DNA of 54,717 bases, from contig CALVRJ010000003.1 of NCBI GenBank assembly GCA_944358545.1, forward strand, positions 1 through 54,717. Direction: 5' to 3'. This document shows positions 43,112 through 54,634 of the stretch, in pieces; position 1 is the stretch's first letter, and each line of letters begins with the position of its first letter. The position numbers and the translations under genes were made by a program. The notes below the pieces were generated by a model. That model was given only the letters and a program-made list of their open reading frames with translations, was not told where the DNA came from and did no database searches. The stretch comes from an uncultured Bacilli bacterium. GTDB lineage: Bacteria > Bacillota_I > Bacilli_A > RF39 > UBA660.

Positions 43112-44059
43112 ATGAGTTTTGTATATGCCAGAAAATTAAAAAATAAATTCTATATATTAGCTGATTCAAAAATAACTATTTCGGACGATGACTCTGATCG
43201 ACTTAAAATTAGAATTGGAGAAAAAGTATATAATGATTTAAAAAAATTTGGAGTAATAAAAAATGTAATAATCAACGAAAATATTTGTATTGCATCTGCT
43301 GGTGTTTTAGAAGACTTCAATGAATTATTAAAATATGTAGATACTCAAAAAATTAATGATATTAATTTAATATCACATCAAGCTTTAAACATTCATTTAC
43401 ATAATAATAAAAGAACTGATTTTATAATAGCAAAAATTGATACAAATAAAGAATTATTAGAAATTAAAAATGGAATTATATCAAAAGTAGAAACTTCATG
43501 GCTAGGTTCATACAATTGTTTTAATATATTTCAAAACATAAGACATGATAAAGTATTTAGAAATCAAATTGAAGATTCATATAGTGTACTTATAGAAGAA
43601 GATAAAAATAGAATTAATTATAATGAATTTCCACCTATAACAATAGATGATATTGAAAAAGATATAGACTTTAAAGCATTCGATAAAGCAGTAAAATCAA
43701 ATACAGATTTAACAGTTGGAGGATATATAGTAGAATGCATTGAACATCACAATAAATTTATGTATCCAGAATGCATTAATAGCACTGTAGAGAAACCACA
43801 AATTGTACCAAGTGACGGAGAAATTAATACTTATAACGAAGCTTCCGAAGGAGGATATACATATCATGCATATGAATCAAACAATAATTTTAAATTATAT
43901 ATTTATCAAATGAAAAAAGGAATTATATATGAACCAAACATTAATGATCCTAAATATAATCATTTAAGACTGCCTAAAATATATAACATGAAATTAGATG
44001 ATTTCATAAAAAATAATAATATAAAACAATCAATAACTATTAATATAGAATATGAATAA
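43112..44059 (+). CDS. Proteasome-beta/HslV-like Ntn-hydrolase candidate
   Basis: After Met removal: Ser1, Asp17 (ADSKIT), Lys49 and Gly63 (14 apart, as K33/G47), LGS, DLTVGG; extended -10 TGGTATAAT and AGGTGA RBS. Confidence 0.6.
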   Translation: MSFVYARKLKNKFYILADSKITISDDDSDRLKIRIGEKVYNDLKKFGVIKNVIINENICIASAGVLEDFNELLKYVDTQKINDINLISHQALNIHLHNNKRTDFIIAKIDTNKELLEIKNGIISKVETSWLGSYNCFNIFQNIRHDKVFRNQIEDSYSVLIEEDKNRINYNEFPPITIDDIEKDIDFKAFDKAVKSNTDLTVGGYIVECIEHHNKFMYPECINSTVEKPQIVPSDGEINTYNEASEGGYTYHAYESNNNFKLYIYQMKKGIIYEPNINDPKYNHLRLPKIYNMKLDDFIKNNNIKQSITINIEYE

Positions 44060-44159
44060 ATGCAATAAAAAAAGAGAATCAACGGATTCCCTATAGAATC
44101 GGCATATAACTCACATTGAGTTTATTAAATTTAAAATGTAATTATTAACACAATTTTAT

Positions 44160-44221: not shown

Positions 44222-44737
44222 TTATAATTGATTATATTCTTTCAATTTTCTAGAATTATCAATATTATTTGATTTAAGTATTCTATTATTAAAAGCTTCT
44301 TCTATTATCTGAGATAATTGATATGAATTTGTTGGATAATTATATAATTTTGCATAACCTGATTTTACATTATCTAACAACCTATCAGGAATAGGAGTAT
44401 TAAATTGATTACATCCTGGCAAAAAAATTCCTACTAGTCCACTTCTTTTATTATTTTGATCATTTCTTAATGTAGAAGCTATCTCCCAATCTACATATTT
44501 TCTTTTATAAGTTTCTTTTCCAATCATAACAATAGTAACCGTAGAATCAGTTAAATAGTTTTCCCTTATAACACGCATAGTATATTCTGGATTGTTACTA
44601 TTAATTTCGGTTCCATATTCATTACCAACAATTCTTTTAATAAATGTATTCTCGTAAGAATTAGAATACTTTGTTACAAAATTACACACCTCATAATCAT
44701 CTTTATGATGATATGATATAAAAACTTTATGTTGCAT
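44222..44737 (-). CDS. ThsB-like TIR domain protein (DUF1863-type)
   Basis: KVFISYHH, STVTIVMIG, VDWEI with catalytic Glu, C-terminal IDNSR. Confidence 0.88.
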   Translation of the reverse strand: MQHKVFISYHHKDDYEVCNFVTKYSNSYENTFIKRIVGNEYGTEINSNNPEYTMRVIRENYLTDSTVTIVMIGKETYKRKYVDWEIASTLRNDQNNKRSGLVGIFLPGCNQFNTPIPDRLLDNVKSGYAKLYNYPTNSYQLSQIIEEAFNNRILKSNNIDNSRKLKEYNQL

Positions 44738-44738
44738 A

Positions 44739-45344
44739 TTATTTACTCCTTATCTCATCTAATTTCATTGTTAAATCAACAATCTTTACGTTAACTTTTT
44801 TAATGTCATCAATGATTTCATTATATTTTGGATATCTTTTTTGTATTTCTTGTGGATCTTCATCAGTATTTTTTTCAAGTTCTTTTTCGTACCATTTTCT
44901 GAATCTTGCTTGATATTTGGTTAAATGATTTCTTAAATCCGTATTTAATACCTCTATTAATAGATTGACCAATTTATTCACTTCTTTATCATTGTTTCCA
45001 GCTAATTCTTTAATAATAGTTCTAAATTGATTATATATTGAATACCAAGAATCATAAACCTCAGCAATTACATCATTTTCCGGATCAAAAGGAAGTGCTA
45101 ATTTTCGAGTAATTAATTCTGTCCATGCTTTATGTGCAATTTGCTTTACTTCCTTATTGCATCCAATATCTATTGTTACACCTTTTATACATATTTGTGA
45201 AACACTTATACTTTTAACCTTTTTTATTTTTTTTATTATCTTTACAATACATAAAATACATAAAATAATTATCGGCAATAGGACTACTATATTATCTAAA
45301 CCTATTGTTATTTTATATTTTGATAAAAATTTTAATATATCCAT
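44739..45344 (-). CDS. Hypothetical single-pass membrane protein coupled to the TIR gene
   Basis: Hydrophobic IVVLLPIIILCILCIV then a helical soluble domain; stop codon 1 nt before the TIR ATG. Confidence 0.75.
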   Translation of the reverse strand: MDILKFLSKYKITIGLDNIVVLLPIIILCILCIVKIIKKIKKVKSISVSQICIKGVTIDIGCNKEVKQIAHKAWTELITRKLALPFDPENDVIAEVYDSWYSIYNQFRTIIKELAGNNDKEVNKLVNLLIEVLNTDLRNHLTKYQARFRKWYEKELEKNTDEDPQEIQKRYPKYNEIIDDIKKVNVKIVDLTMKLDEIRSK

Positions 45345-45368: not shown

Positions 45369-47162
45369 CTATAAAGAATAATAGTATTCTTTAATCTTAT
45401 TAGCCATCAATATTCTACGTTGTTTTAAGAATTCATCAAAATCATTAACTGTCATATTTTCAAATCCATCTGGTATGCAATTGATTTTCAAATTCTGATT
45501 TAACAATTCTTTATCAATAATTGATCCAATAGTAGCTTCACCATTTTTACATTGTTCATTTATCTCTAACATATAAGCATTTGGCGCTTTATTTGTTATT
45601 TGTAAATTTATTTCTGTTTGTATTAATGCAAAATTAGCAATTTGATTATAAATGCTCTTATTATTCTTCCCGTTCTTCTGTAGATAGTCTTTAGGGAATA
45701 TATGATGTACATCTCCTCTGCCTTCTACCAGTGTTCTCACTTTCATATCTTTAGATAAGAATGCACTATCATTTAAAGATATTTGGGCAATTAAATATGT
45801 TTTCCAATAAGGAGAACTTGCTACGGGAGTATTAAAGTTTTCGACTAAAATACTATTCCAGAAAGCATCACCTAAACGTCTTTCTAATTCTTCATTAATA
45901 TATTGAACTAAATCTTCTGCTTCATTTAATCTTCTAATATCTAAATCAAATTGTGATTCTGGAGATGAAGTGTATCTTTGTGTAATTATAGACATAATTA
46001 CCCATCTCTTAACAAGTCTTTCAATAATATTTGGAGCTATATTCCTTTCTCTTAACAGTAAAAATAAAATATATCCAAAATTTAGTACATTTTTAGATCT
46101 TAATAATGAATCATCTATTATTCCAGCTGATTTTAAAATCATTACATATCTTTCAAAATTAGTTTGACTAACAAAAGATTTTACTCCATCATATAGTTTG
46201 GTATAACTATCCTCTACTATATCTTCTCTATATTCTCTTGTTTCAAAATCACGACCAGATAGCAAAGAAACTAAATCCTGTAATTTACCTCTTTTGAACT
46301 TATAAGTAAAAGCAACTCTTAATACATCTACATAACTTGGTAAAAATAAATCTTCATTTTTATCTTTTATCCATGATATCTTATTAAATATTTCTTTTTT
46401 ACTAAAATCAATATCATTATTTTTTATATTTTCATAATCAACAGGTGTTTTTGCAAAATGACAAAAATAATCAATTGCTTTTCTTATATCATTTCCTTCA
46501 TATTTTTCATTAACACTAATCTTACTCATTGCAAAATCTGCTTGAGAAAGAACCACACCAGCAGAATTTATTCTTACAAATATTTCTGTTACCGTTTCAA
46601 TATCTAACATAGACCCTAATTCTATTCTGCCAATCATTATATTCTTTATAGATTGTAATTTAGTAATTTTTTTACTTAATTCATTTGCATCTAAATTAAA
46701 CTTTTGAGAATAATTACTAATAAATTCAAATGTGTTAAAACCAGGTTTCATAACTTCAGAAATATCAGAAATCCATTCTTCTTGCTTTTCAATAGCTGGA
46801 TTACAAGTTTGAAATTCCTCTGTTTGAATGTTAAAAGCGATCTTTATTCTTTTTTTCTTATAATTGTCATCTAATACTTCTTCTCCTAATAATGATGCCG
46901 TTAAAGCTGTAATTCTTTGCTGACCATCTATTAATATTTGCTTACCTTCTGATGCAGATCCGTCTTTTAATTTTACATCTGGACTTTTCCATGTAATTAT
47001 ATAGCCTACAGGATATTCTCTATATAAAGAATCAATCAAATCTCTAACTTTAGTTGTATCCCATACAAAAGGTCTTTGTATTTCAGGTATAGCAATAGTC
47101 CCATCATTAACATATCCCAAAAGAGTTTCCACACTTACATTGTTAACATCAAATTTTGCCAT
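45369..47162 (-). CDS. GmrSD-like type IV restriction protein (DUF262 + C-terminal HNH-like DUF1524)
   Basis: IPEIQRPFVW, LIDGQQR, FVRINS; C-terminal DVHHIFPK...IANFAL. Confidence 0.88.
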   Translation of the reverse strand: MAKFDVNNVSVETLLGYVNDGTIAIPEIQRPFVWDTTKVRDLIDSLYREYPVGYIITWKSPDVKLKDGSASEGKQILIDGQQRITALTASLLGEEVLDDNYKKKRIKIAFNIQTEEFQTCNPAIEKQEEWISDISEVMKPGFNTFEFISNYSQKFNLDANELSKKITKLQSIKNIMIGRIELGSMLDIETVTEIFVRINSAGVVLSQADFAMSKISVNEKYEGNDIRKAIDYFCHFAKTPVDYENIKNNDIDFSKKEIFNKISWIKDKNEDLFLPSYVDVLRVAFTYKFKRGKLQDLVSLLSGRDFETREYREDIVEDSYTKLYDGVKSFVSQTNFERYVMILKSAGIIDDSLLRSKNVLNFGYILFLLLRERNIAPNIIERLVKRWVIMSIITQRYTSSPESQFDLDIRRLNEAEDLVQYINEELERRLGDAFWNSILVENFNTPVASSPYWKTYLIAQISLNDSAFLSKDMKVRTLVEGRGDVHHIFPKDYLQKNGKNNKSIYNQIANFALIQTEINLQITNKAPNAYMLEINEQCKNGEATIGSIIDKELLNQNLKINCIPDGFENMTVNDFDEFLKQRRILMANKIKEYYYSL

Positions 47163-47177
47163 TTTTTCACCACTTTC

Positions 47178-50100
47178 TTACATTTCTTTTATTGAATTTT
47201 CAATATGTTCAATTTCTTCATCAGTTAATTCATATTTCAAATATAATTGTTGATCTATTTCTTTTATTGACTTACTCCAATCAATATCAGAGTTTTCTGA
47301 AATATCTTGAATAGGAACATAATCAAATGTCTTTGATGTTGCATCTTGACTACTTTTTAATAAACTATGTAAATATCTTAAAAATTTTGTTTTTAAATAT
47401 TTTGATAAATTATTAGCTTCATTTTCAGTCATTCCTAAATCTGCGCCTATAGTTAAATATGATTCAGTACAAATAGTATTAGGTTCTCCGACAAAAGAAT
47501 TCATATTATCATCATTTAACTCAGTTCCAATATTATTAGCACGAGGAATAAATACTTTCCAATTGTTAACCCATTCATTATGATTTAAAATGTTTTTAGC
47601 ATTTGTAAATTTAATATTCTTTCCTTTTATATAGCACTTAATATTATTAGTTTTACTTTTGTCATCCACTAAATTTTTACTTCTAGCAAAGTTACCATCT
47701 AAACCAAAAGGTTTTCTTGATGAAACCAAGTCAGAAAAACTTCTAAAAAATTCATTTTCTTTAATTTTTAAAAGTATAGATTCTGCATGATTATCTCTTA
47801 TAAAAACATTATCATCAAATAGTTTCATATTTCTATACATATCACTCACTATATTATTATCTTTTCGTGAAATAACTCTAACTTTGCTATCTTGGTTATT
47901 GTACTCTTTATCCCATAAAAGATAACAAACACCACCACGATTATTTGTGTTAGGAAAAATATCTTCAGGTGTTAAACAATCATTTATTTCTTTAATATTA
48001 ATGTCATTTAACATAGAAATTCTAAAATCGTCTAAACCTTTTCCGCCAACATACCATCTTGATGGAATAATTAAAGAGATGTATTTATTAGCAATGCTTC
48101 TGCTTATATTAACAAAATCACTATATATTGGTCTTGCACTTGCACCAGCTCCACCATCTGCTTCTTGATATGGAGGATTACCAACAACAATATCAAACTT
48201 CATTTTTCCATCTCCTTCCACATATAACAAATTATCTTCTAACATAATCTCTGACATTTTTTTATTTTGTAATAAATATTTTTTTATTTTATTTAAATCT
48301 AAATTGTTATTTTCTTTAATGTTAAGTAAATCATACGATGTAAAACTTGTTGCAATATTTTCTACATTCAAATTTAAAATCTCATATACTTTTCTTGTAA
48401 ACTCATATGCAATTTTAGATGTAGGTATCGAATATAAACAGTTATTAATCAATTCTTCATTTAAATTTAATTGTTTTAATTTAGAATACATTGCTATAAT
48501 GAATTCTCCTTCTTTACTAGCAATATCTAAAATATTTGAACCGGAATTTACCACATTTATAATATCACTATCTGGTATTGTAGATATCATTTTATTACAT
48601 ATTTTATTTGGTGTAATTATTTCTGAATCAGATAATTTGTCAAATTTATTTATAGCTATTAACGCTCTATCTATTTTATTTAATGATTCATCATTTGATA
48701 ATTTATTGATGTTTTGTATTTTATAATCTAGTTGACTCAAAACAAACGGATCAATATTTTCATAAATTAATTTTAATATATTAATGTCTAACTCTAAATT
48801 CATTAAAATTCTTTGATTATTTGAATCTTCATATGTGCCAATAATATTTTTTAATGAACTTAGTTTACTATCTGATAAGAAAGAATAAAACAAAATTCTG
48901 ACATAATAAGTTTTAAATTTATTAATAATAATTTTCTTTAAATCATTACTATCAGTAGTATTATTTGACGAATTGTTTTGAGTATCATTGTTTTGATTTT
49001 CTAATTCATCATCAAATTCTAATGATAATTCTTCAAAATCGTCTACTTCATCATCTGTATTAACTAGTTTTAAACCACCTTTTGAACCAAGCTCAGCCTG
49101 TTTCAATATTATTTCTCTTATTTCATCTATATTTAATAACTTAAAGTCAACAGGCAAAGCGTTTGATTCATCAAGAACACTTCTTGAATTTGAATAATTA
49201 CTAATATAGTTCATAATATCTATTGCTGTTATTTGTTTTAATTTATTACTATCAAAAACAATAATCGGTGAAATATTCAATTCATTTTCTAATCTATCTT
49301 TTAATTTATCGTTACCATTATTTTCAGTATTAACATTGTAAATTAAAGACTTTGTTTCTTGCATTATAAACATTCTATTTGGATTAAAATCAACTAATAA
49401 TGTTTGTGGTTTCTTATTATATTTAATAATGTCACCATCTTCAGATACATATTCTTTTACATATTGATTTTGTAACCTAAAAATTGCTTGATCATATTCT
49501 TGTGGAGATGATGTATCTTTCAAATAAATCATTGTGTCCCATTCTTCGACAGTGCTTCCTGTTAACATTCTGTTAACGGTTAAAGTTATTGTTTTTTTAT
49601 TGTTTCTTTCACAATTTTTAATTGCATATTTTATATCATTTATATTTCTATAGGAATTAGATTCATCAACTCCTGAAATATTAATAATTTCATATTCATT
49701 TAAATTTTTAAATTTATCTTTATTGTCTTTTATTAACTTTTCAAACGAATCACATGAAGCACAAAATGGTAAGACTACTACAATATGTCTGCACATTTTT
49801 CCTTCTTTTATTTTATCAAAATCTAAAAAGCCTAATACTTCATCATCATTTTTACTTCCATCAATAACTTCTAATAAATCTAATATTTCAGTTTCATATT
49901 TAAATTTTTGATGTTTCCCTTCAGAATTTTTTGTTATTGATAAAGGTCTAAACAATTCAGAAAAAGCATATGTTATTCCTAATTTCTTTAATTCTAGTAA
50001 TTTTTCTCTAATTGATTTATTTGGATTAAATGCAAATCTAACCATTTGTGGAAAACCATAATAAGGATTTTCCCATTCTTTGTATGAATCATCTAATATA

Positions 50101-51206
50101 TGTTCCTTATCCCAATCTGACTGTGCTTTTACAATATCTGGAAATTGATAGAAACCAATTATATCTTCTTTTTCAAATTCAGAACCCATTAAAATTCTAT
50201 ACGGAGTACCAGATAAGTGAATTCTAACTTTAGATTTTAATACTTTTACAATATTATCAGCATCTTCAAAATTTATATTTTCATCTTCTCTGGTATCTCT
50301 AACATCTCTTAATACAGCGCCATAACTCTCAGCTCTTGCACCAAAGTGTGTTTCATCGATTAGTAATAAATCTATTTGATTGTTAAATAGTTCTTGGTGT
50401 TTTTCTTTTATTTTAGTCCCTTGTAAATCTTGTAGTGTCAAAAATACAACAACTTTTCTACCATTTGTTAGTTTATTTTTTATAATTTTGTTATCTCTTA
50501 ATAATTGTTCACTTTCAATAAAATCATATTCTTTAAAATTTTCAGCACTTTGTACAGTCTTCTTCCACTCTTCTTTTACATCAGCTTTTGCTGAAACTAT
50601 TAAAACTACATTTGCATCCATTTCTAATGCACAGCACATTGATGTAAAACTCTTTCCAAATCTCATAACAGCATATAATAATAAATTTGTTCTACCTGCT
50701 GCATATGCTTTTTTAAAATTATTTACTACTTCTAGTTGGTTAGGTCTTAATTTCCAAATGCCTGTAGAAGCATATTCTGTGATTACTCTAAGATTATCAT
50801 TAGCATTATAAAATTGATATTTCATTAAATTTTCTTCAAAATCTCTTTTTATATCTTTGATGGCATCATCTATGTCAGATACGGAAGTTCCTTTAAAGAA
50901 CTCATTTGAAAAATAAATATTTTCATCAATATCTTTAGATGTTAATCTTTCTTTTTGTAAATCATTTTCTAAAAATTGATGTACAGAATAATCCCTAAAA
51001 AATATATCTTCTGATACCATAGCTTTAGTATCATATTTTTTTTCTAATTCGGGATAATGTTTTTTCCATTCATCTAATCTTACTGATACAGGTCTATAAG
51101 TGTCACCAATCTTTATATAATTAGGTACTGTATTTGTAGTAAAAGCATATATATGTGGTTCAACACGCCCAACAATAATTTTATCTAATAAGCTCAAATC
51201 TTTCAT
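47178..51206 (-). CDS. GIY-YIG/T5orf172-like nuclease - SF2 helicase - N6-adenine MTase - TRD fusion
   Basis: HIYAF...YIKIGDT...R; MRFGKS, IDETH, SGTPY, QAIFR; ILDIASKEG, FDIVVGNPPYQ; KVFIPRANN-type C-terminus. Confidence 0.85.
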   Translation of the reverse strand: MKDLSLLDKIIVGRVEPHIYAFTTNTVPNYIKIGDTYRPVSVRLDEWKKHYPELEKKYDTKAMVSEDIFFRDYSVHQFLENDLQKERLTSKDIDENIYFSNEFFKGTSVSDIDDAIKDIKRDFEENLMKYQFYNANDNLRVITEYASTGIWKLRPNQLEVVNNFKKAYAAGRTNLLLYAVMRFGKSFTSMCCALEMDANVVLIVSAKADVKEEWKKTVQSAENFKEYDFIESEQLLRDNKIIKNKLTNGRKVVVFLTLQDLQGTKIKEKHQELFNNQIDLLLIDETHFGARAESYGAVLRDVRDTREDENINFEDADNIVKVLKSKVRIHLSGTPYRILMGSEFEKEDIIGFYQFPDIVKAQSDWDKEHILDDSYKEWENPYYGFPQMVRFAFNPNKSIREKLLELKKLGITYAFSELFRPLSITKNSEGKHQKFKYETEILDLLEVIDGSKNDDEVLGFLDFDKIKEGKMCRHIVVVLPFCASCDSFEKLIKDNKDKFKNLNEYEIINISGVDESNSYRNINDIKYAIKNCERNNKKTITLTVNRMLTGSTVEEWDTMIYLKDTSSPQEYDQAIFRLQNQYVKEYVSEDGDIIKYNKKPQTLLVDFNPNRMFIMQETKSLIYNVNTENNGNDKLKDRLENELNISPIIVFDSNKLKQITAIDIMNYISNYSNSRSVLDESNALPVDFKLLNIDEIREIILKQAELGSKGGLKLVNTDDEVDDFEELSLEFDDELENQNNDTQNNSSNNTTDSNDLKKIIINKFKTYYVRILFYSFLSDSKLSSLKNIIGTYEDSNNQRILMNLELDINILKLIYENIDPFVLSQLDYKIQNINKLSNDESLNKIDRALIAINKFDKLSDSEIITPNKICNKMISTIPDSDIINVVNSGSNILDIASKEGEFIIAMYSKLKQLNLNEELINNCLYSIPTSKIAYEFTRKVYEILNLNVENIATSFTSYDLLNIKENNNLDLNKIKKYLLQNKKMSEIMLEDNLLYVEGDGKMKFDIVVGNPPYQEADGGAGASARPIYSDFVNISRSIANKYISLIIPSRWYVGGKGLDDFRISMLNDINIKEINDCLTPEDIFPNTNNRGGVCYLLWDKEYNNQDSKVRVISRKDNNIVSDMYRNMKLFDDNVFIRDNHAESILLKIKENEFFRSFSDLVSSRKPFGLDGNFARSKNLVDDKSKTNNIKCYIKGKNIKFTNAKNILNHNEWVNNWKVFIPRANNIGTELNDDNMNSFVGEPNTICTESYLTIGADLGMTENEANNLSKYLKTKFLRYLHSLLKSSQDATSKTFDYVPIQDISENSDIDWSKSIKEIDQQLYLKYELTDEEIEHIENSIKEM

Positions 51207-51221
51207 ATGATACCTCTCTTT

Positions 51222-52187
51222 CTACTTAATTAAAGATATAAATTTTATACTTCTATTAGTTTTCCAATTCATAACTTTGCAATAAATCCCATTGTGATTT
51301 TTAGGTTTATTTTTTTTGCATCCTAAACATTCTTCATTATGTTCAATATCTCCAAATAAAGTTAATTCGATTTTTTTTTCATTTTTGCAACTATTTGGAA
51401 TGACAAATTTTAATCCATCCATTTGCCAAATGTTCCAACTTATTATCTCAGCTATTTTTTTTACTAATTCTATATTTGGTTTTTTATTAAATTTATCCTT
51501 ATAATAATCAATAAAAGTATATAATAAATTTTCTCTTGCAATTAAAACATTATCTCCTTGCCAATCATATCCATAAACGCTTTTCATTGCTTTAATCGAC
51601 CATTCTACCCATTCTGATTCATCATTCGCATTTTCTGAAACTATTCTTAACTTTCTATCTAACAATCCAATTCTATTTTTTATTTTTATGCTTTTACCTG
51701 TTACTGAATCATATCTGCTTACAAGATATGGTGCTTCGCCACATGAAATTTCTAATCTCGTACTATTAATATAATCTTGCCATGTTTTGCTTTCAGGAAA
51801 ATATATCTTTTCTTCTACTGTTTCCCAGCTATCTTTGTTAGATTTATTAAATACAATATCTCGTTCGAACCAAGCCTCGTCTACTAAATTGTTTTGATTA
51901 TTACAAATCCATGAAGGGGTGAAAACTTCTGCATTTTCTTTTATTCTTTTATTTTTTTCTTGAGCTGATTTTTTTGATCTTGGCTTTATTACTTCTCTAT
52001 AATTACCAGTTATCTTATCAACTGTAATTTCATCTTCAAAATTAAATCTATTACCATATTCCTTATAATTATCCGTTGCCCAAATAATATTTTTTTTACT
52101 ACTATGATCAAACAGAAGTATATTTAAAATTTCAGCATCAACTAATAATAAGTTTTCCTCTTTTACATCAACTAATTCTCTAAACAA
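51222..52187 (-). CDS. RM-associated methyltransferase-like subunit lacking the catalytic NPPY motif
   Basis: IIWATD, AEVFTPSW, LEISCGEAPYL, YGYDWQGD, WQMDG; no (D/N)PP(Y/F); Cys/His-rich C-terminus. Confidence 0.8.
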   Translation of the reverse strand: MFRELVDVKEENLLLVDAEILNILLFDHSSKKNIIWATDNYKEYGNRFNFEDEITVDKITGNYREVIKPRSKKSAQEKNKRIKENAEVFTPSWICNNQNNLVDEAWFERDIVFNKSNKDSWETVEEKIYFPESKTWQDYINSTRLEISCGEAPYLVSRYDSVTGKSIKIKNRIGLLDRKLRIVSENANDESEWVEWSIKAMKSVYGYDWQGDNVLIARENLLYTFIDYYKDKFNKKPNIELVKKIAEIISWNIWQMDGLKFVIPNSCKNEKKIELTLFGDIEHNEECLGCKKNKPKNHNGIYCKVMNWKTNRSIKFISLIK

Positions 52188-52216: not shown

Positions 52217-52738
52217 CTAAAAATCTTTTGGCAATTTGCTGTAATCATATTTATTTTGAGCTTTTACCAATTCATCAAAAGCATATTTTATATCTTCTAT
52301 AGCTTTATCTATCGTATATAAACTATCTTTGTTTTCTTGCATTAATTTTAAATGTTCCATAGTATAAAATAATTTTCCTCTTGCATCATTCACTACTGCT
52401 CTTTTTTTAGCATCCCAATCTAATAAATCTAATTGGGACTTTTTATATCTTTCTATCATATCTTTTAAATCCCTTGTGGATTTATTTTTATATCTATCTA
52501 ATGATAAATAATCAAGAAATTCGTCATATCCTGCTACTTTTAATAACTTTTTTAAAGATAAGTCTAATGTTTCAGCTATCTTTTTTAATGCATCTACATC
52601 TATTTTTTTTATTTTACCATTAATAATATCATTTAAAGTACTTCTACTGATTCCTGATAACTTTGCAAGTTCTCTTTGTGATATTCCTTTAGCTTCTCTA
52701 GCACTTTCAATAATACTTTTAAGTTCTTCTGAATTCAT
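52217..52738 (-). CDS. XRE-family HTH repressor
   Basis: REAKGISQRELAKLSGISRSTLNDIING; start re-placed at ATG 52738. Confidence 0.9.
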   Translation of the reverse strand: MNSEELKSIIESAREAKGISQRELAKLSGISRSTLNDIINGKIKKIDVDALKKIAETLDLSLKKLLKVAGYDEFLDYLSLDRYKNKSTRDLKDMIERYKKSQLDLLDWDAKKRAVVNDARGKLFYTMEHLKLMQENKDSLYTIDKAIEDIKYAFDELVKAQNKYDYSKLPKDF

Positions 52739-52778
52739 ATATTCACTTCTTTCTCCCATTTTTTCTTCTTCTTAACTA

Positions 52779-52807
52779 ATTTTATCATTTTTTTAAAAAT
52801 GTGTCTA
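52779..52807 (-). promoter_or_regulatory. Leftward promoter (repressor + defence operon)
   Basis: TAGACA-17-TAAAAT with TGn extension. Confidence 0.7.
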
Positions 52808-52878
52808 TAATTTCGGACAAAAAGTATTGACAAGTTTTCCGGACAATGTTATATTTTAATTGACTGATATTTCGGACA
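52802..52878. promoter_or_regulatory. Three operator-like sites TG(T/A)C-N10-GACA
   Basis: 52802-52819, 52828-52845, 52861-52878; the first two overlap the two -35 elements. Confidence 0.7.
52827..52855 (+). promoter_or_regulatory. Rightward (early) promoter
   Basis: TTGACA-17-TATATT with TGn extension. Confidence 0.8.
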
Positions 52879-52897
52879 CAAAATATTAAGTTAAATT

Positions 52898-52912
52898 TGT
52901 TCTTTGAAAACT
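52898..52912 (+). promoter_or_regulatory. boxA-like antitermination motif
   Basis: TGTTCTTTGAAAACT resembles the Bacillota rrn boxA. Confidence 0.55.
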
Positions 52913-52998
52913 TAGTCTTAGTGGAAATCGCCGATATGCCATTAAGTAAAAAATGCAAGGCAGAAATTATCCTCATACTGGCAAAGAGGAGTTATGGT

Positions 52999-53079
52999 AT
53001 GACTAATATATCAAGTTATGAAATAACTAAAATTTCACGAAGGGTTTATGCCCGAAAGTACTCTACCCTTTTTAGATAA
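52999..53079 (+). CDS. Possible 26-aa leader peptide
   Basis: GAGGAG RBS 7 nt before ATG; MTNISSYEITKISRRVYARKYSTLFR. Confidence 0.35.
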   Translation: MTNISSYEITKISRRVYARKYSTLFR

Positions 53080-53099
53080 TGAAGGAGGTGAAAAAATAT

Positions 53100-53417
53100 A
53101 TGAAACACTTTACTTCTATTAGAAATGATGTTTTAGAAAACTCTAAGTTATCATTAGGAGCTAAAGGACTATATTGCTTAATATGTTTTGATGTAACCGC
53201 ATCATTAAGACAACTACTATTAGATCCTAATACTAAAGCAGAAACTATAAAGTTTGCTAATGAATTAATGGAAAATGATTATGCACATTTCTTTGGCTTA
53301 GAAGAATGTGTTAGTAAAGATTCATATCTTGGTCTTAGTATCTCTATGCAACCTACTGATGAATATAAAAAAGTTGTTGATATAAGATACAAAAAATACG
53401 AAGAATTAGAAAGATAA
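53100..53417 (+). CDS. Short protein with a replication-initiator-type N-terminal HTH
   Basis: FTSIRNDVLENSKLSLGAKGLY motif; AAGGAGGTG RBS. Confidence 0.6.
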   Translation: MKHFTSIRNDVLENSKLSLGAKGLYCLICFDVTASLRQLLLDPNTKAETIKFANELMENDYAHFFGLEECVSKDSYLGLSISMQPTDEYKKVVDIRYKKYEELER

Positions 53418-53430
53418 AAGGAGGTGTAAT

Positions 53431-53694
53431 ATGACCGTAGATGAAACTTTAAAACTTATTGCACAACAATGGTGCAACTTATCAGATTTAATGAAACTTG
53501 CAAATATAGGCAGAAATTCAGCATTAACCATTAAAAGTAAAATCAAAAATGATTTAGAAAGTAAAGGTTATTATGTTCCAAAGAACGCTGTACCAATGCA
53601 AGAAGTTGTTAAATATTTAAATATCGATATTGATTATTTAGAATCAAGAAGTAAAAATTTGAAGGGAGATGTTAAAATTGCTCAAACCTATTGA
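53431..53694 (+). CDS. Excisionase-like HTH protein (ICEBs1 Xis-like)
   Basis: DLMKLANIGRNSALTI...DLESKGYYVPKNAVP resembles the Xis pattern; AGGAGGTG RBS. Confidence 0.55.
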   Translation: MTVDETLKLIAQQWCNLSDLMKLANIGRNSALTIKSKIKNDLESKGYYVPKNAVPMQEVVKYLNIDIDYLESRSKNLKGDVKIAQTY

Positions 53695-54634
53695 AAAAGT
53701 AGATACAAGCATAAAAAAAGACATCATCATAAATAATATAATGAAGTCTAAAGGCGTGTATCTACTAGTGTCTAATCCAAAAGTAGGAAAGTCTATGTTG
53801 GCACTGCAACTTTCCTGCTCCGTTATTAACGGAACACCATTTTTAGGACAAAAAGTAAATCACTCACCTGTTTTATATGTTACCACAGAATCCGATGCTG
53901 GTCAATTAAAGGAACGTCTAGAATTTCTAGAACTTTCCGCAAAAAACGACTCGCTATTTATAATAGATAGACAAACAAAAGCTAATATATCGTTAAGAGA
54001 TATAGAATATGATATTAAAGTTTTTGCTGAAGATTATAATGGTAAATTAATAATATTAGATATGTTAAAAGATGTTGATTTTGGAGTTCAATATGACATT
54101 AATAATTATCAAGATGTTGCTCAGCAGGTATTTCCAAAATTAAGAACTTATTGTGATAAATATAACGTTACTTTTTTAGTTACACATCATCTAAATAAAA
54201 CTGGTAAAACTTTAGGAAGTGTTGCATTAAATGCAACAGTAGATGGTAGAATCACTTTAATAGAAAATAAATCTAATAAAAGATATGTTAAATTGCAAAC
54301 AATTAATAGAGATTTTCCAGAATTAGATATTCAATTAAAAAAATTAGATAATCTTATATTTCAAAAAATAAATTCTATTGAAGATGATGAACTATCATAT
54401 GAAATGACTTCTTTTATAAAGTATGTTGCTAGTCAAAAAGAAATTGATTTTACTTGTACTGATATTGTGTTAAAAGCCAATATACCAATGTCACCTAAGA
54501 GATTTGGTAGACTACTTAATAGTAGTCTGGAACTCTTAGAAAGCGAAGGTGTTCATATCACTAAATGTAGAACTGCTGAAAGCAGATTATATCATGCTAC
54601 ATTTATAGAGCCTTCGCAAAATGAAGATGATTAA
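53678..54634 (+). CDS. AAA_25/RepA-DnaB-like ATPase (helicase-like)
   Basis: Walker A SNPKVGKS, Walker B IILD, VTHHLNK...LGSVAL; TTG start at 53678 fits RBS spacing (track start 53669). Confidence 0.8.
   Translation: MLKPIEKVDTSIKKDIIINNIMKSKGVYLLVSNPKVGKSMLALQLSCSVINGTPFLGQKVNHSPVLYVTTESDAGQLKERLEFLELSAKNDSLFIIDRQTKANISLRDIEYDIKVFAEDYNGKLIILDMLKDVDFGVQYDINNYQDVAQQVFPKLRTYCDKYNVTFLVTHHLNKTGKTLGSVALNATVDGRITLIENKSNKRYVKLQTINRDFPELDIQLKKLDNLIFQKINSIEDDELSYEMTSFIKYVASQKEIDFTCTDIVLKANIPMSPKRFGRLLNSSLELLESEGVHITKCRTAESRLYHATFIEPSQNEDD

Follow-up and report, generated by a model that had tools for sequence, protein, structure and literature searches.

What does a TIR gene do when it lies beside a gene for an unannotated membrane protein and no ThsA is encoded nearby? 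The question is raised by a two-gene locus in contig CALVRJ010000003.1 (GCA_944358545.1) of an uncultured Bacilli bacterium of the RF39/UBA660 lineage, of which we analysed a stretch of 54,717 nucleotides (nt), referred to here as the window. A first-pass annotation of the window had proposed the pair as a candidate new Thoeris-like system, with the membrane protein in the position of the effector. Judging from the homology of both genes to validated counterparts, we consider the pair to be a two-gene type VI Thoeris anti-phage system, with a probability of about 0.87. The two genes were annotated as follows.

44222..44737, minus strand: thsB, encoding a TIR-domain protein of 171 amino acids (aa), identified by a match to PF08937 and by homology to validated type VI ThsBs
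44739..45344, minus strand: thsG, of the transmembrane (TM) type, encoding a predicted effector of 201 aa, identified by homology to validated ThsGs

The two open reading frames (ORFs) are as first described. A single nucleotide (44738) lies between the stop codon of thsG and the ATG of thsB. The ribosome-binding site (RBS) of thsB, AAGGAG, is placed within the 3' end of thsG, and that of thsG, AGGAGG, lies upstream of the gene. ThsB matched the Pfam ThsB_TIR model PF08937 (E = 3e-18) and, at ~1e-11, the PADLOC models ThsB1 and PDC-M50B (6.8e-12 for the latter). Only the TIR protein matched PDC-M50B, and the PADLOC models for the PDC-M50 partner matched neither the window ThsG nor 10 of its relatives. 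The catalytic glutamate proposed for the VDWEI motif is Glu85, in 'RKYVDWEI'; it aligned with the Glu of 'RWVRYEI' in the solved ThsB of B. cereus (6LHY/9B7D), and the motif also aligned with 'HVDWEI' of a validated type VI ThsB, that of the scaffold described below. ThsB is predicted to be a phage sensor and cyclic ADP-ribose (cADPR) synthase with Glu85 as its catalytic residue.

The description of the 201-aa protein as one N-terminal hydrophobic helix followed by a helical soluble domain also held. The protein has one hydrophobic segment, residues 19-37 (Kyte-Doolittle 3.3), and the AlphaFold2 (AF2) model of the monomer, calculated from a 27-sequence alignment (predicted local distance difference test score, pLDDT, 84), comprised a TM helix (residues 16-44), a beta-hairpin (48-61) and a helical bundle (64-200). 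Searches of ThsG against Pfam, PADLOC and NCBIfam yielded no significant match; matches to KinB_sensor, GAT and MakE in the family scans were sub-threshold coiled-coil noise. According to Foldseek, the AF2 model had no neighbour in the PDB at E<=0.001, the top hit being a four-helix subunit of PA28 (E = 0.17). The sequence profile of ThsG likewise matched nothing in the PDB, indicating that no ThsG structure has been solved. PADLOC and Foldseek thus returned nothing of significance for this protein, but full-length homologues exist among the validated ThsGs. The first-pass annotation spoke of an unrecognised domain; the effector domain is indeed missed by current libraries of hidden Markov models (HMMs), but it is already known as the TM-type ThsG domain.

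Thoeris types V to XI were defined by Yirmiya et al. in a December 2025 preprint (bioRxiv 10.64898/2025.12.03.692087). In that work, type VI comprises ThsB and ThsG, the effector being annotated as DUF6650 (PF20355) and possessing N-terminal TM helices in some systems. The type VI signal is 2'cADPR, and the AlphaFold3 (AF3) model of ThsG is a homo-hexameric tube with positive pockets between the protomers. Table S2 of the preprint includes three defensive systems labelled 'DUF6650 and TM', one each on scaffold Ga0209396_1000232, in E. coli S1 and in E. coli ACN001. The system of the scaffold, which is gammaproteobacterial, protects E. coli, and its ThsG hexamer was modelled with an interface predicted TM-score (ipTM) of 0.79. 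In cells carrying this system, exogenous 2'cADPR arrests growth while 3'cADPR and canonical cADPR do not, and XopQ, a 2'cADPR-cleaving enzyme, abolishes both defence and toxicity (bioRxiv 10.64898/2025.12.03.692087).

To compare the window pair with these systems, we retrieved scaffold Ga0209396_1000232 from a metagenome collection using the published TIR sequence (locus L091). The scaffold TIR gene (Ga0209396_100023224) overlaps by 10 nt with the gene downstream of it, which encodes a 214-aa ThsG (Ga0209396_100023225) in which every hallmark motif of the window ThsG family is present. The window and scaffold ThsGs share 34% identity over 194 aa (E = 3e-35), the two ThsBs share 41% identity over their full length (E = 3e-39), and the HMM of the window ThsG family scored the scaffold effector at 7e-75. 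On the chromosome of E. coli ACN001 (NZ_CP007442.1), the window ThsG profile matched one gene only (E = 1.3e-16). Its product, a 243-aa 'hypothetical protein' in RefSeq (WP_000286099.1), is 27% identical to the window ThsG (E = 4e-15). This gene lies directly next to a TIR gene; the encoded TIR has exactly the sequence given in Table S1 for the validated ThsB and is 37% identical to the window ThsB (E = 6e-18). In a profile-profile comparison using hhalign, the ThsG clades of the window and of ACN001 aligned with a probability of 98.6%. The ACN001 pair is at positions 865360-866708, in a P2-like prophage, flanked on one side by replication-endonuclease and DinI genes and on the other by a truncated portal gene.

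We assigned the window pair to type VI because both of its genes are full-length homologues of the validated scaffold and ACN001 pairs. Since type VI Thoeris has already been described and tested in the preprint, the pair is of a described system type and is not a new system. The first-pass annotation had allowed for the possibility that the pair matches a described system, and validated type VI ThsB and ThsG proved to be that match. Its broader Thoeris-like reading survives in that the membrane protein is best regarded as the cognate effector, most likely sensing a TIR-made cyclic ADPR signal and acting at the membrane; what does not survive is the novelty.

The experiments on the scaffold system also bear on the possibility that the TIR protein is itself the toxin, an NADase that depletes NAD+ as in CBASS, Pycsar and TIR-pAgo systems, the membrane protein being a sensor, an anchor or a regulator. 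Many bacterial TIRs do act as NADase effectors, and the preprint concedes the possibility for configurations that were not verified (bioRxiv 10.64898/2025.12.03.692087). In the validated homologue, however, the addition of 2'cADPR is enough to arrest cells, and defence is lost in the presence of a 2'cADPR hydrolase. Both results put ThsG downstream of a diffusible signal. The window TIR, moreover, belongs to the signalling clade of ThsB (PF08937). We consider a toxic TIR very improbable at this locus.

Thoeris effectors are normally encoded next to the TIR, and the first-pass annotation had suggested examining how consistently homologues of the 201-aa protein are so placed. The ThsG family comprises 88 clusters in a set of 5.8 billion proteins and, in an exhaustive search, 871 representative clusters at 50% identity (E<=1e-3). 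It is present in 286 species-representative genomes, from Bacillota, the Candidate Phyla Radiation (CPR)/Patescibacteria, Acidobacteriota, Planctomycetota, Chloroflexota, Pseudomonadota, Bacteroidota and other phyla. Starting from the window TIR, we iterated an HMM and applied it to every ORF of the 80 best loci of ThsG homologues, each from a different species. In 70 of the 80 loci, a TIR homologue adjoined ThsG on the same strand at a distance of no more than 200 nt, and in 7 others it lay within 4 kb; the last 3 loci were truncated by a contig end. Even without iteration, a search with the window TIR sequence by itself detected a TIR in 72 of the 80. The order of the genes is variable, the TIR being upstream of ThsG in 36 loci and downstream in 31, and 38 of the 80 loci contain two or more TIR genes. 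Locus L062 has up to six TIR-like ORFs, and loci L117 and L152 each contain two ThsG-family paralogues with the TIR between them. With a TIR gene adjoining or near ThsG in every locus that a contig end did not truncate, the pairing far exceeds what chance would give, and ThsG and the TIR constitute a genuine two-gene module.

Alignment of diverse family members revealed 20 invariant ThsG positions, among them E76, T79, R80, K81, D91, E95, Y97, S99, W100, R108, K112, N134, R138, H140, L141, T142, A146, R149 and W151. The invariant Arg, Lys, His and Trp residues of the soluble domain would fit a nucleotide-binding pocket.

Linkage was also tested in the reverse direction, using 80 metagenomic loci that hold close relatives of the scaffold type VI TIR. 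A ThsG-family gene was beside the TIR in 61 of these loci; of the 19 without one, 6 were cut at a contig end. A canonical DUF6650 gene was found in 0 of the 80. Some close relatives within this TIR clade pair with other effectors, such as a CMP hydrolase. The presence of ~13 close TIR relatives that have no ThsG-family neighbour, despite available room on the contig, suggests effector swapping within one TIR clade.

Three results weigh against the assignment to type VI. First, the Pfam DUF6650 model PF20355.3 matched neither the window ThsG nor any of 26 relatives at E<=10. Second, hhalign comparison of the window ThsG clade with canonical, soluble DUF6650 was negative, with a shallow profile of the latter and with a deep one built from a 34-sequence alignment (probability of 0.3% with the deep profile). 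Third, two of the five defensive type VI systems yielded no 2'cADPR that could be detected (bioRxiv 10.64898/2025.12.03.692087). These results raise the possibility that the TM-type ThsGs, with at least 871 clusters and 286 species genomes, are a family distinct from DUF6650 that was independently coupled to the same ThsB clade. Type VI would then lump two unrelated effectors, and the Bacillota member might answer to a product other than 2'cADPR, a notion to which the alternative effectors of the TIR clade lend some colour.

The first of these results is not peculiar to the window clade. PF20355.3 also failed, at E-value limits of 1 to 10, to match any of the 21 ThsGs of the ACN001 clade, the validated one of ACN001 among them, or the validated scaffold ThsG. 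Nor did PF20355 have a true match in the window's genome, in 9 ThsG-carrying genomes, in 400 genomes of the host phylum or on the ACN001 chromosome. Because validated TM-type ThsGs fail PF20355.3 too, the DUF6650 criterion cannot separate the window clade from validated members, and its failure therefore weakens the label, not the type VI assignment. The annotation depends, moreover, on the Pfam version: one TM-type ThsG of the E. coli clade (P0264) has a precomputed PF20355.5 match on record, and PF20355.3 did not match this same protein at E<=10.

Additional evidence argues against an independent origin. Although no bridge from the ThsG family to canonical DUF6650 was found among the best 150 of the 871 representative matches, the E. 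coli TM clade aligned with canonical DUF6650 weakly (probability 16%, E = 0.0016) and in a topologically sensible manner, 'LDTKRTLF' being placed over 'LEDKRVLF' and 'S..IR' over 'SVI.IR'. The AF2 models of the window ThsG and of canonical DUF6650 are laid out alike, with one helix leading through an extended loop to three long helices. As for the signal, the closest validated relative, the scaffold ThsG, responds specifically to 2'cADPR. We therefore regard two unrelated effector families as improbable, and any kinship of the TM clade with canonical DUF6650 as remote at best. Were they unrelated after all, two effector families would be conflated under 'type VI Thoeris', and the window ThsG, like other divergent members, might read a different TIR product. 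For practical purposes, 'DUF6650' is a poor operational criterion, and it is direct homology to the validated TM-type ThsGs that decides the classification. The canonical family may itself not always be TIR-linked: near two canonical soluble DUF6650 genes of Pseudomonadota (L087, 1324-1800, minus strand; L088, 1468-2010, plus strand), no TIR ORF of at least 100 aa was found, in ~3.3-kb loci that are too short for certainty.

With the pair assigned to type VI, a mechanism can be proposed. ThsB would be inactive until phage infection is sensed. Once activated, it would use Glu85 to turn NAD+ into an isomer of cyclic ADP-ribose, 2'cADPR (1''-2' gcADPR) being the most probable one. ThsG, anchored by its one N-terminal helix, would bind this signal through its cytoplasmic helical domain, probably at positively charged pockets between the protomers of a ring- or tube-shaped oligomer. 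Activated ThsG would then arrest growth, probably by compromising the membrane, and the arrest would stop phage replication short of completion, in an abortive infection.

The steps of this scheme differ in strength. That ThsG at this locus is a signal-activated effector is very likely. That the signal is 2'cADPR is likely, with a reservation that reflects the 41% identity of the TIRs and the two type VI systems without detectable 2'cADPR. An oligomeric ring or tube whose pocket is formed by the conserved Arg, Lys and His residues is favoured a little less strongly. Membrane damage as the toxic step is evenly balanced, as the preprint offers it only as a hypothesis (bioRxiv 10.64898/2025.12.03.692087). 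For the window locus, we infer from the homologues which signal is used, how ThsG oligomerises and that membrane damage kills the cell; the literature on those homologues is also the source of the phage defence, the 2'cADPR-induced growth arrest and the AF3 hexamer model (bioRxiv 10.64898/2025.12.03.692087). The present analysis established the domain anatomy, the operon structure, the homology, the near-obligate linkage and the defence-island setting.

The last of these was evident from the genes that surround the pair. ThsG and ThsB are encoded by the final two of six minus-strand genes, in the order HTH_3 repressor, 321-aa ORF, type IIG restriction-modification (RM) enzyme, GmrSD, ThsG and ThsB, separated by gaps of 29, 15, 15, 24 and 1 nt, respectively. 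The neighbouring features are as follows.

52217-52759, minus strand: Xre/CI-type repressor (HTH_3) that heads the string
51222-52187, minus strand: 321-aa ORF between the repressor and the type IIG RM gene, without a Pfam match at E<=0.01
47178..51206, minus strand: single-chain type IIG RM enzyme of 1342 aa (PADLOC REase_MTase_IIG, 1535.8 bits; Eco57I and ResIII domains)
45369..47162, minus strand: GmrSD-type restriction endonuclease, 24 nt upstream of thsG (GmrSD_N, 8e-33; PADLOC HEC-05, 1.9e-30)
44073..44092, minus strand: terminator-like hairpin followed by a T-run, 130 nt past the thsB stop, from a hairpin scan
43112-44059, plus strand: 315-aa ORF convergent with thsB, without a match in Pfam, PADLOC or NCBIfam

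The GmrSD and type IIG RM genes are context and stand outside the Thoeris pair. The C-terminal end of the 321-aa ORF also occurs upstream of the RM gene in loci L003 and L004. From 43.9 to 53.1 kb, the hairpin past thsB is the sole terminator-like site, and the minus-strand operon probably ends there. As 0.9 sites would be expected at random and 1 was found, the location of the hairpin is suggestive, not proof. A promoter scan was uninformative in this AT-rich DNA (77 sites against 76.9 expected).

Candidates for an additional component of the system were rejected. The 315-aa ORF is more than 99% identical in L001-L003 only and, being absent from the other 77 ThsG loci, lies outside the Thoeris module. 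Neither a second TIR nor a hidden ThsA is encoded elsewhere: the whole 1.38-Mb genome, a metagenome-assembled genome (MAG) of an uncultured Bacilli bacterium, holds one ThsB only, and SIR2_2 (PF13289) matched nothing in it. The absence of ThsA, noted at first for the window, thus extends to the genome, and the nearest neighbours of the pair are the GmrSD and type IIG RM genes.

The G+C content of the defence block is 0.23-0.27, against ~0.30-0.35 in the neighbouring housekeeping genes. Divergent from the repressor are small plus-strand ORFs and a gene for an AAA_25 (RepA/DnaB-like) ATPase (region 52217-54634), which suggests that the repressor and AAA_25 region is the control/replication module of a mobile element on which the defence operon is carried. 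This putative element runs off the contig end at 54717, where the view of a far boundary or integrase ends. None of 100 other genomes from the same family, one of them from the same genus, contained ThsG, indicating that the system is accessory and horizontally acquired.

Alternatively, the pair might be a decayed or non-defensive remnant, for example one that hitch-hikes in a mobile element without a function in its host. The host is uncultured, and of the 30 operons that the preprint put to the test, 15 provided no defence in heterologous hosts (bioRxiv 10.64898/2025.12.03.692087). By contrast, both ORFs are intact and full length, all family-invariant residues of ThsG and the catalytic Glu of ThsB are present, and an RBS precedes each gene. 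In addition, three other assemblies, MAGs labelled Bacilli or Tenericutes, contain the locus in near-identical form, and a fourth contains a pair of 82-85% identity, with both genes intact in every case. A remnant is accordingly a most improbable explanation, and a type VI Thoeris system remains the reading that we adopt.

As the system type, the signal and the defence phenotype have already been reported, the locus carries little weight as a discovery. The pair looked new because the Pfam PF20355.3, PADLOC v2 and NCBIfam models used here miss TM-type ThsG, a large clade that occurs in many phyla. Pipelines that depend on those models would leave such pairs as orphan ThsB genes, tempting to report as 'new systems'. 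The alignment and its invariant residues provide a usable signature of the family as well as candidate pocket residues. With this locus, the range of type VI Thoeris also takes in an uncultured Bacilli lineage with a small genome, in which the pair comes last in a compact operon of several defence systems.

Among the known Thoeris systems, type I (ThsB and the SIR2-SLOG protein ThsA, responding to 3'cADPR) has the ThsB TIR family in common with the window pair, and the closest solved structures, 6LHY and 9B7D of B. cereus, come from it. The window genome, however, is without SIR2_2, and the window effector is unrelated to ThsA. In type II (ThsB and a TM-Macro protein, responding to histidine-ADPR, His-ADPR), too, a TIR signal activates a small effector that is anchored in the membrane and is believed to damage it. 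The Macro domain found no match among 27 ThsG family members, the soluble domain of the window ThsG is predicted to be all-helical apart from one hairpin as opposed to the alpha/beta Macro fold, and the window TIR is closer to the type VI ThsBs. Type VII (ThsB and a SLATT protein, responding to canonical cADPR) and the SLATT effectors of CBASS also feature a helical membrane effector that oligomerises on a nucleotide signal; their motif set differs from that of the window ThsG, and the SLATT Pfam models matched none of the 27 family members at E<=10.

Within type VI, the soluble ThsGs (PF20355; Bacillus scaffolds) follow the same logic according to the preprint, with 2'cADPR as the signal and a hexameric tube as the model (bioRxiv 10.64898/2025.12.03.692087). 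In AF2 models, their secondary-structure layout loosely resembles that of the window ThsG. They are without a TM helix, and their sequence similarity is undetectable to the window clade and faint to the E. coli TM clade. The TM-type systems of the scaffold, E. coli S1 and ACN001 are the closest counterparts. They differ from the window pair in details: the effector precedes the TIR in the window and in ACN001 whereas the TIR precedes the effector in the scaffold; ThsG has one TM helix in the window and the scaffold and two in the E. coli proteins; and the window pair comes from an uncultured Bacilli lineage of small genome. The architecture is nevertheless the same. In each case, a ThsB-type TIR of ~170-200 aa is tightly coupled to an effector of ~200-240 aa built of one or more N-terminal TM helices and a helical domain, the window pair being 34-41% identical to the scaffold pair and 27-37% identical to the E. 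coli pair, and the genes reside in a defence island or mobile element.

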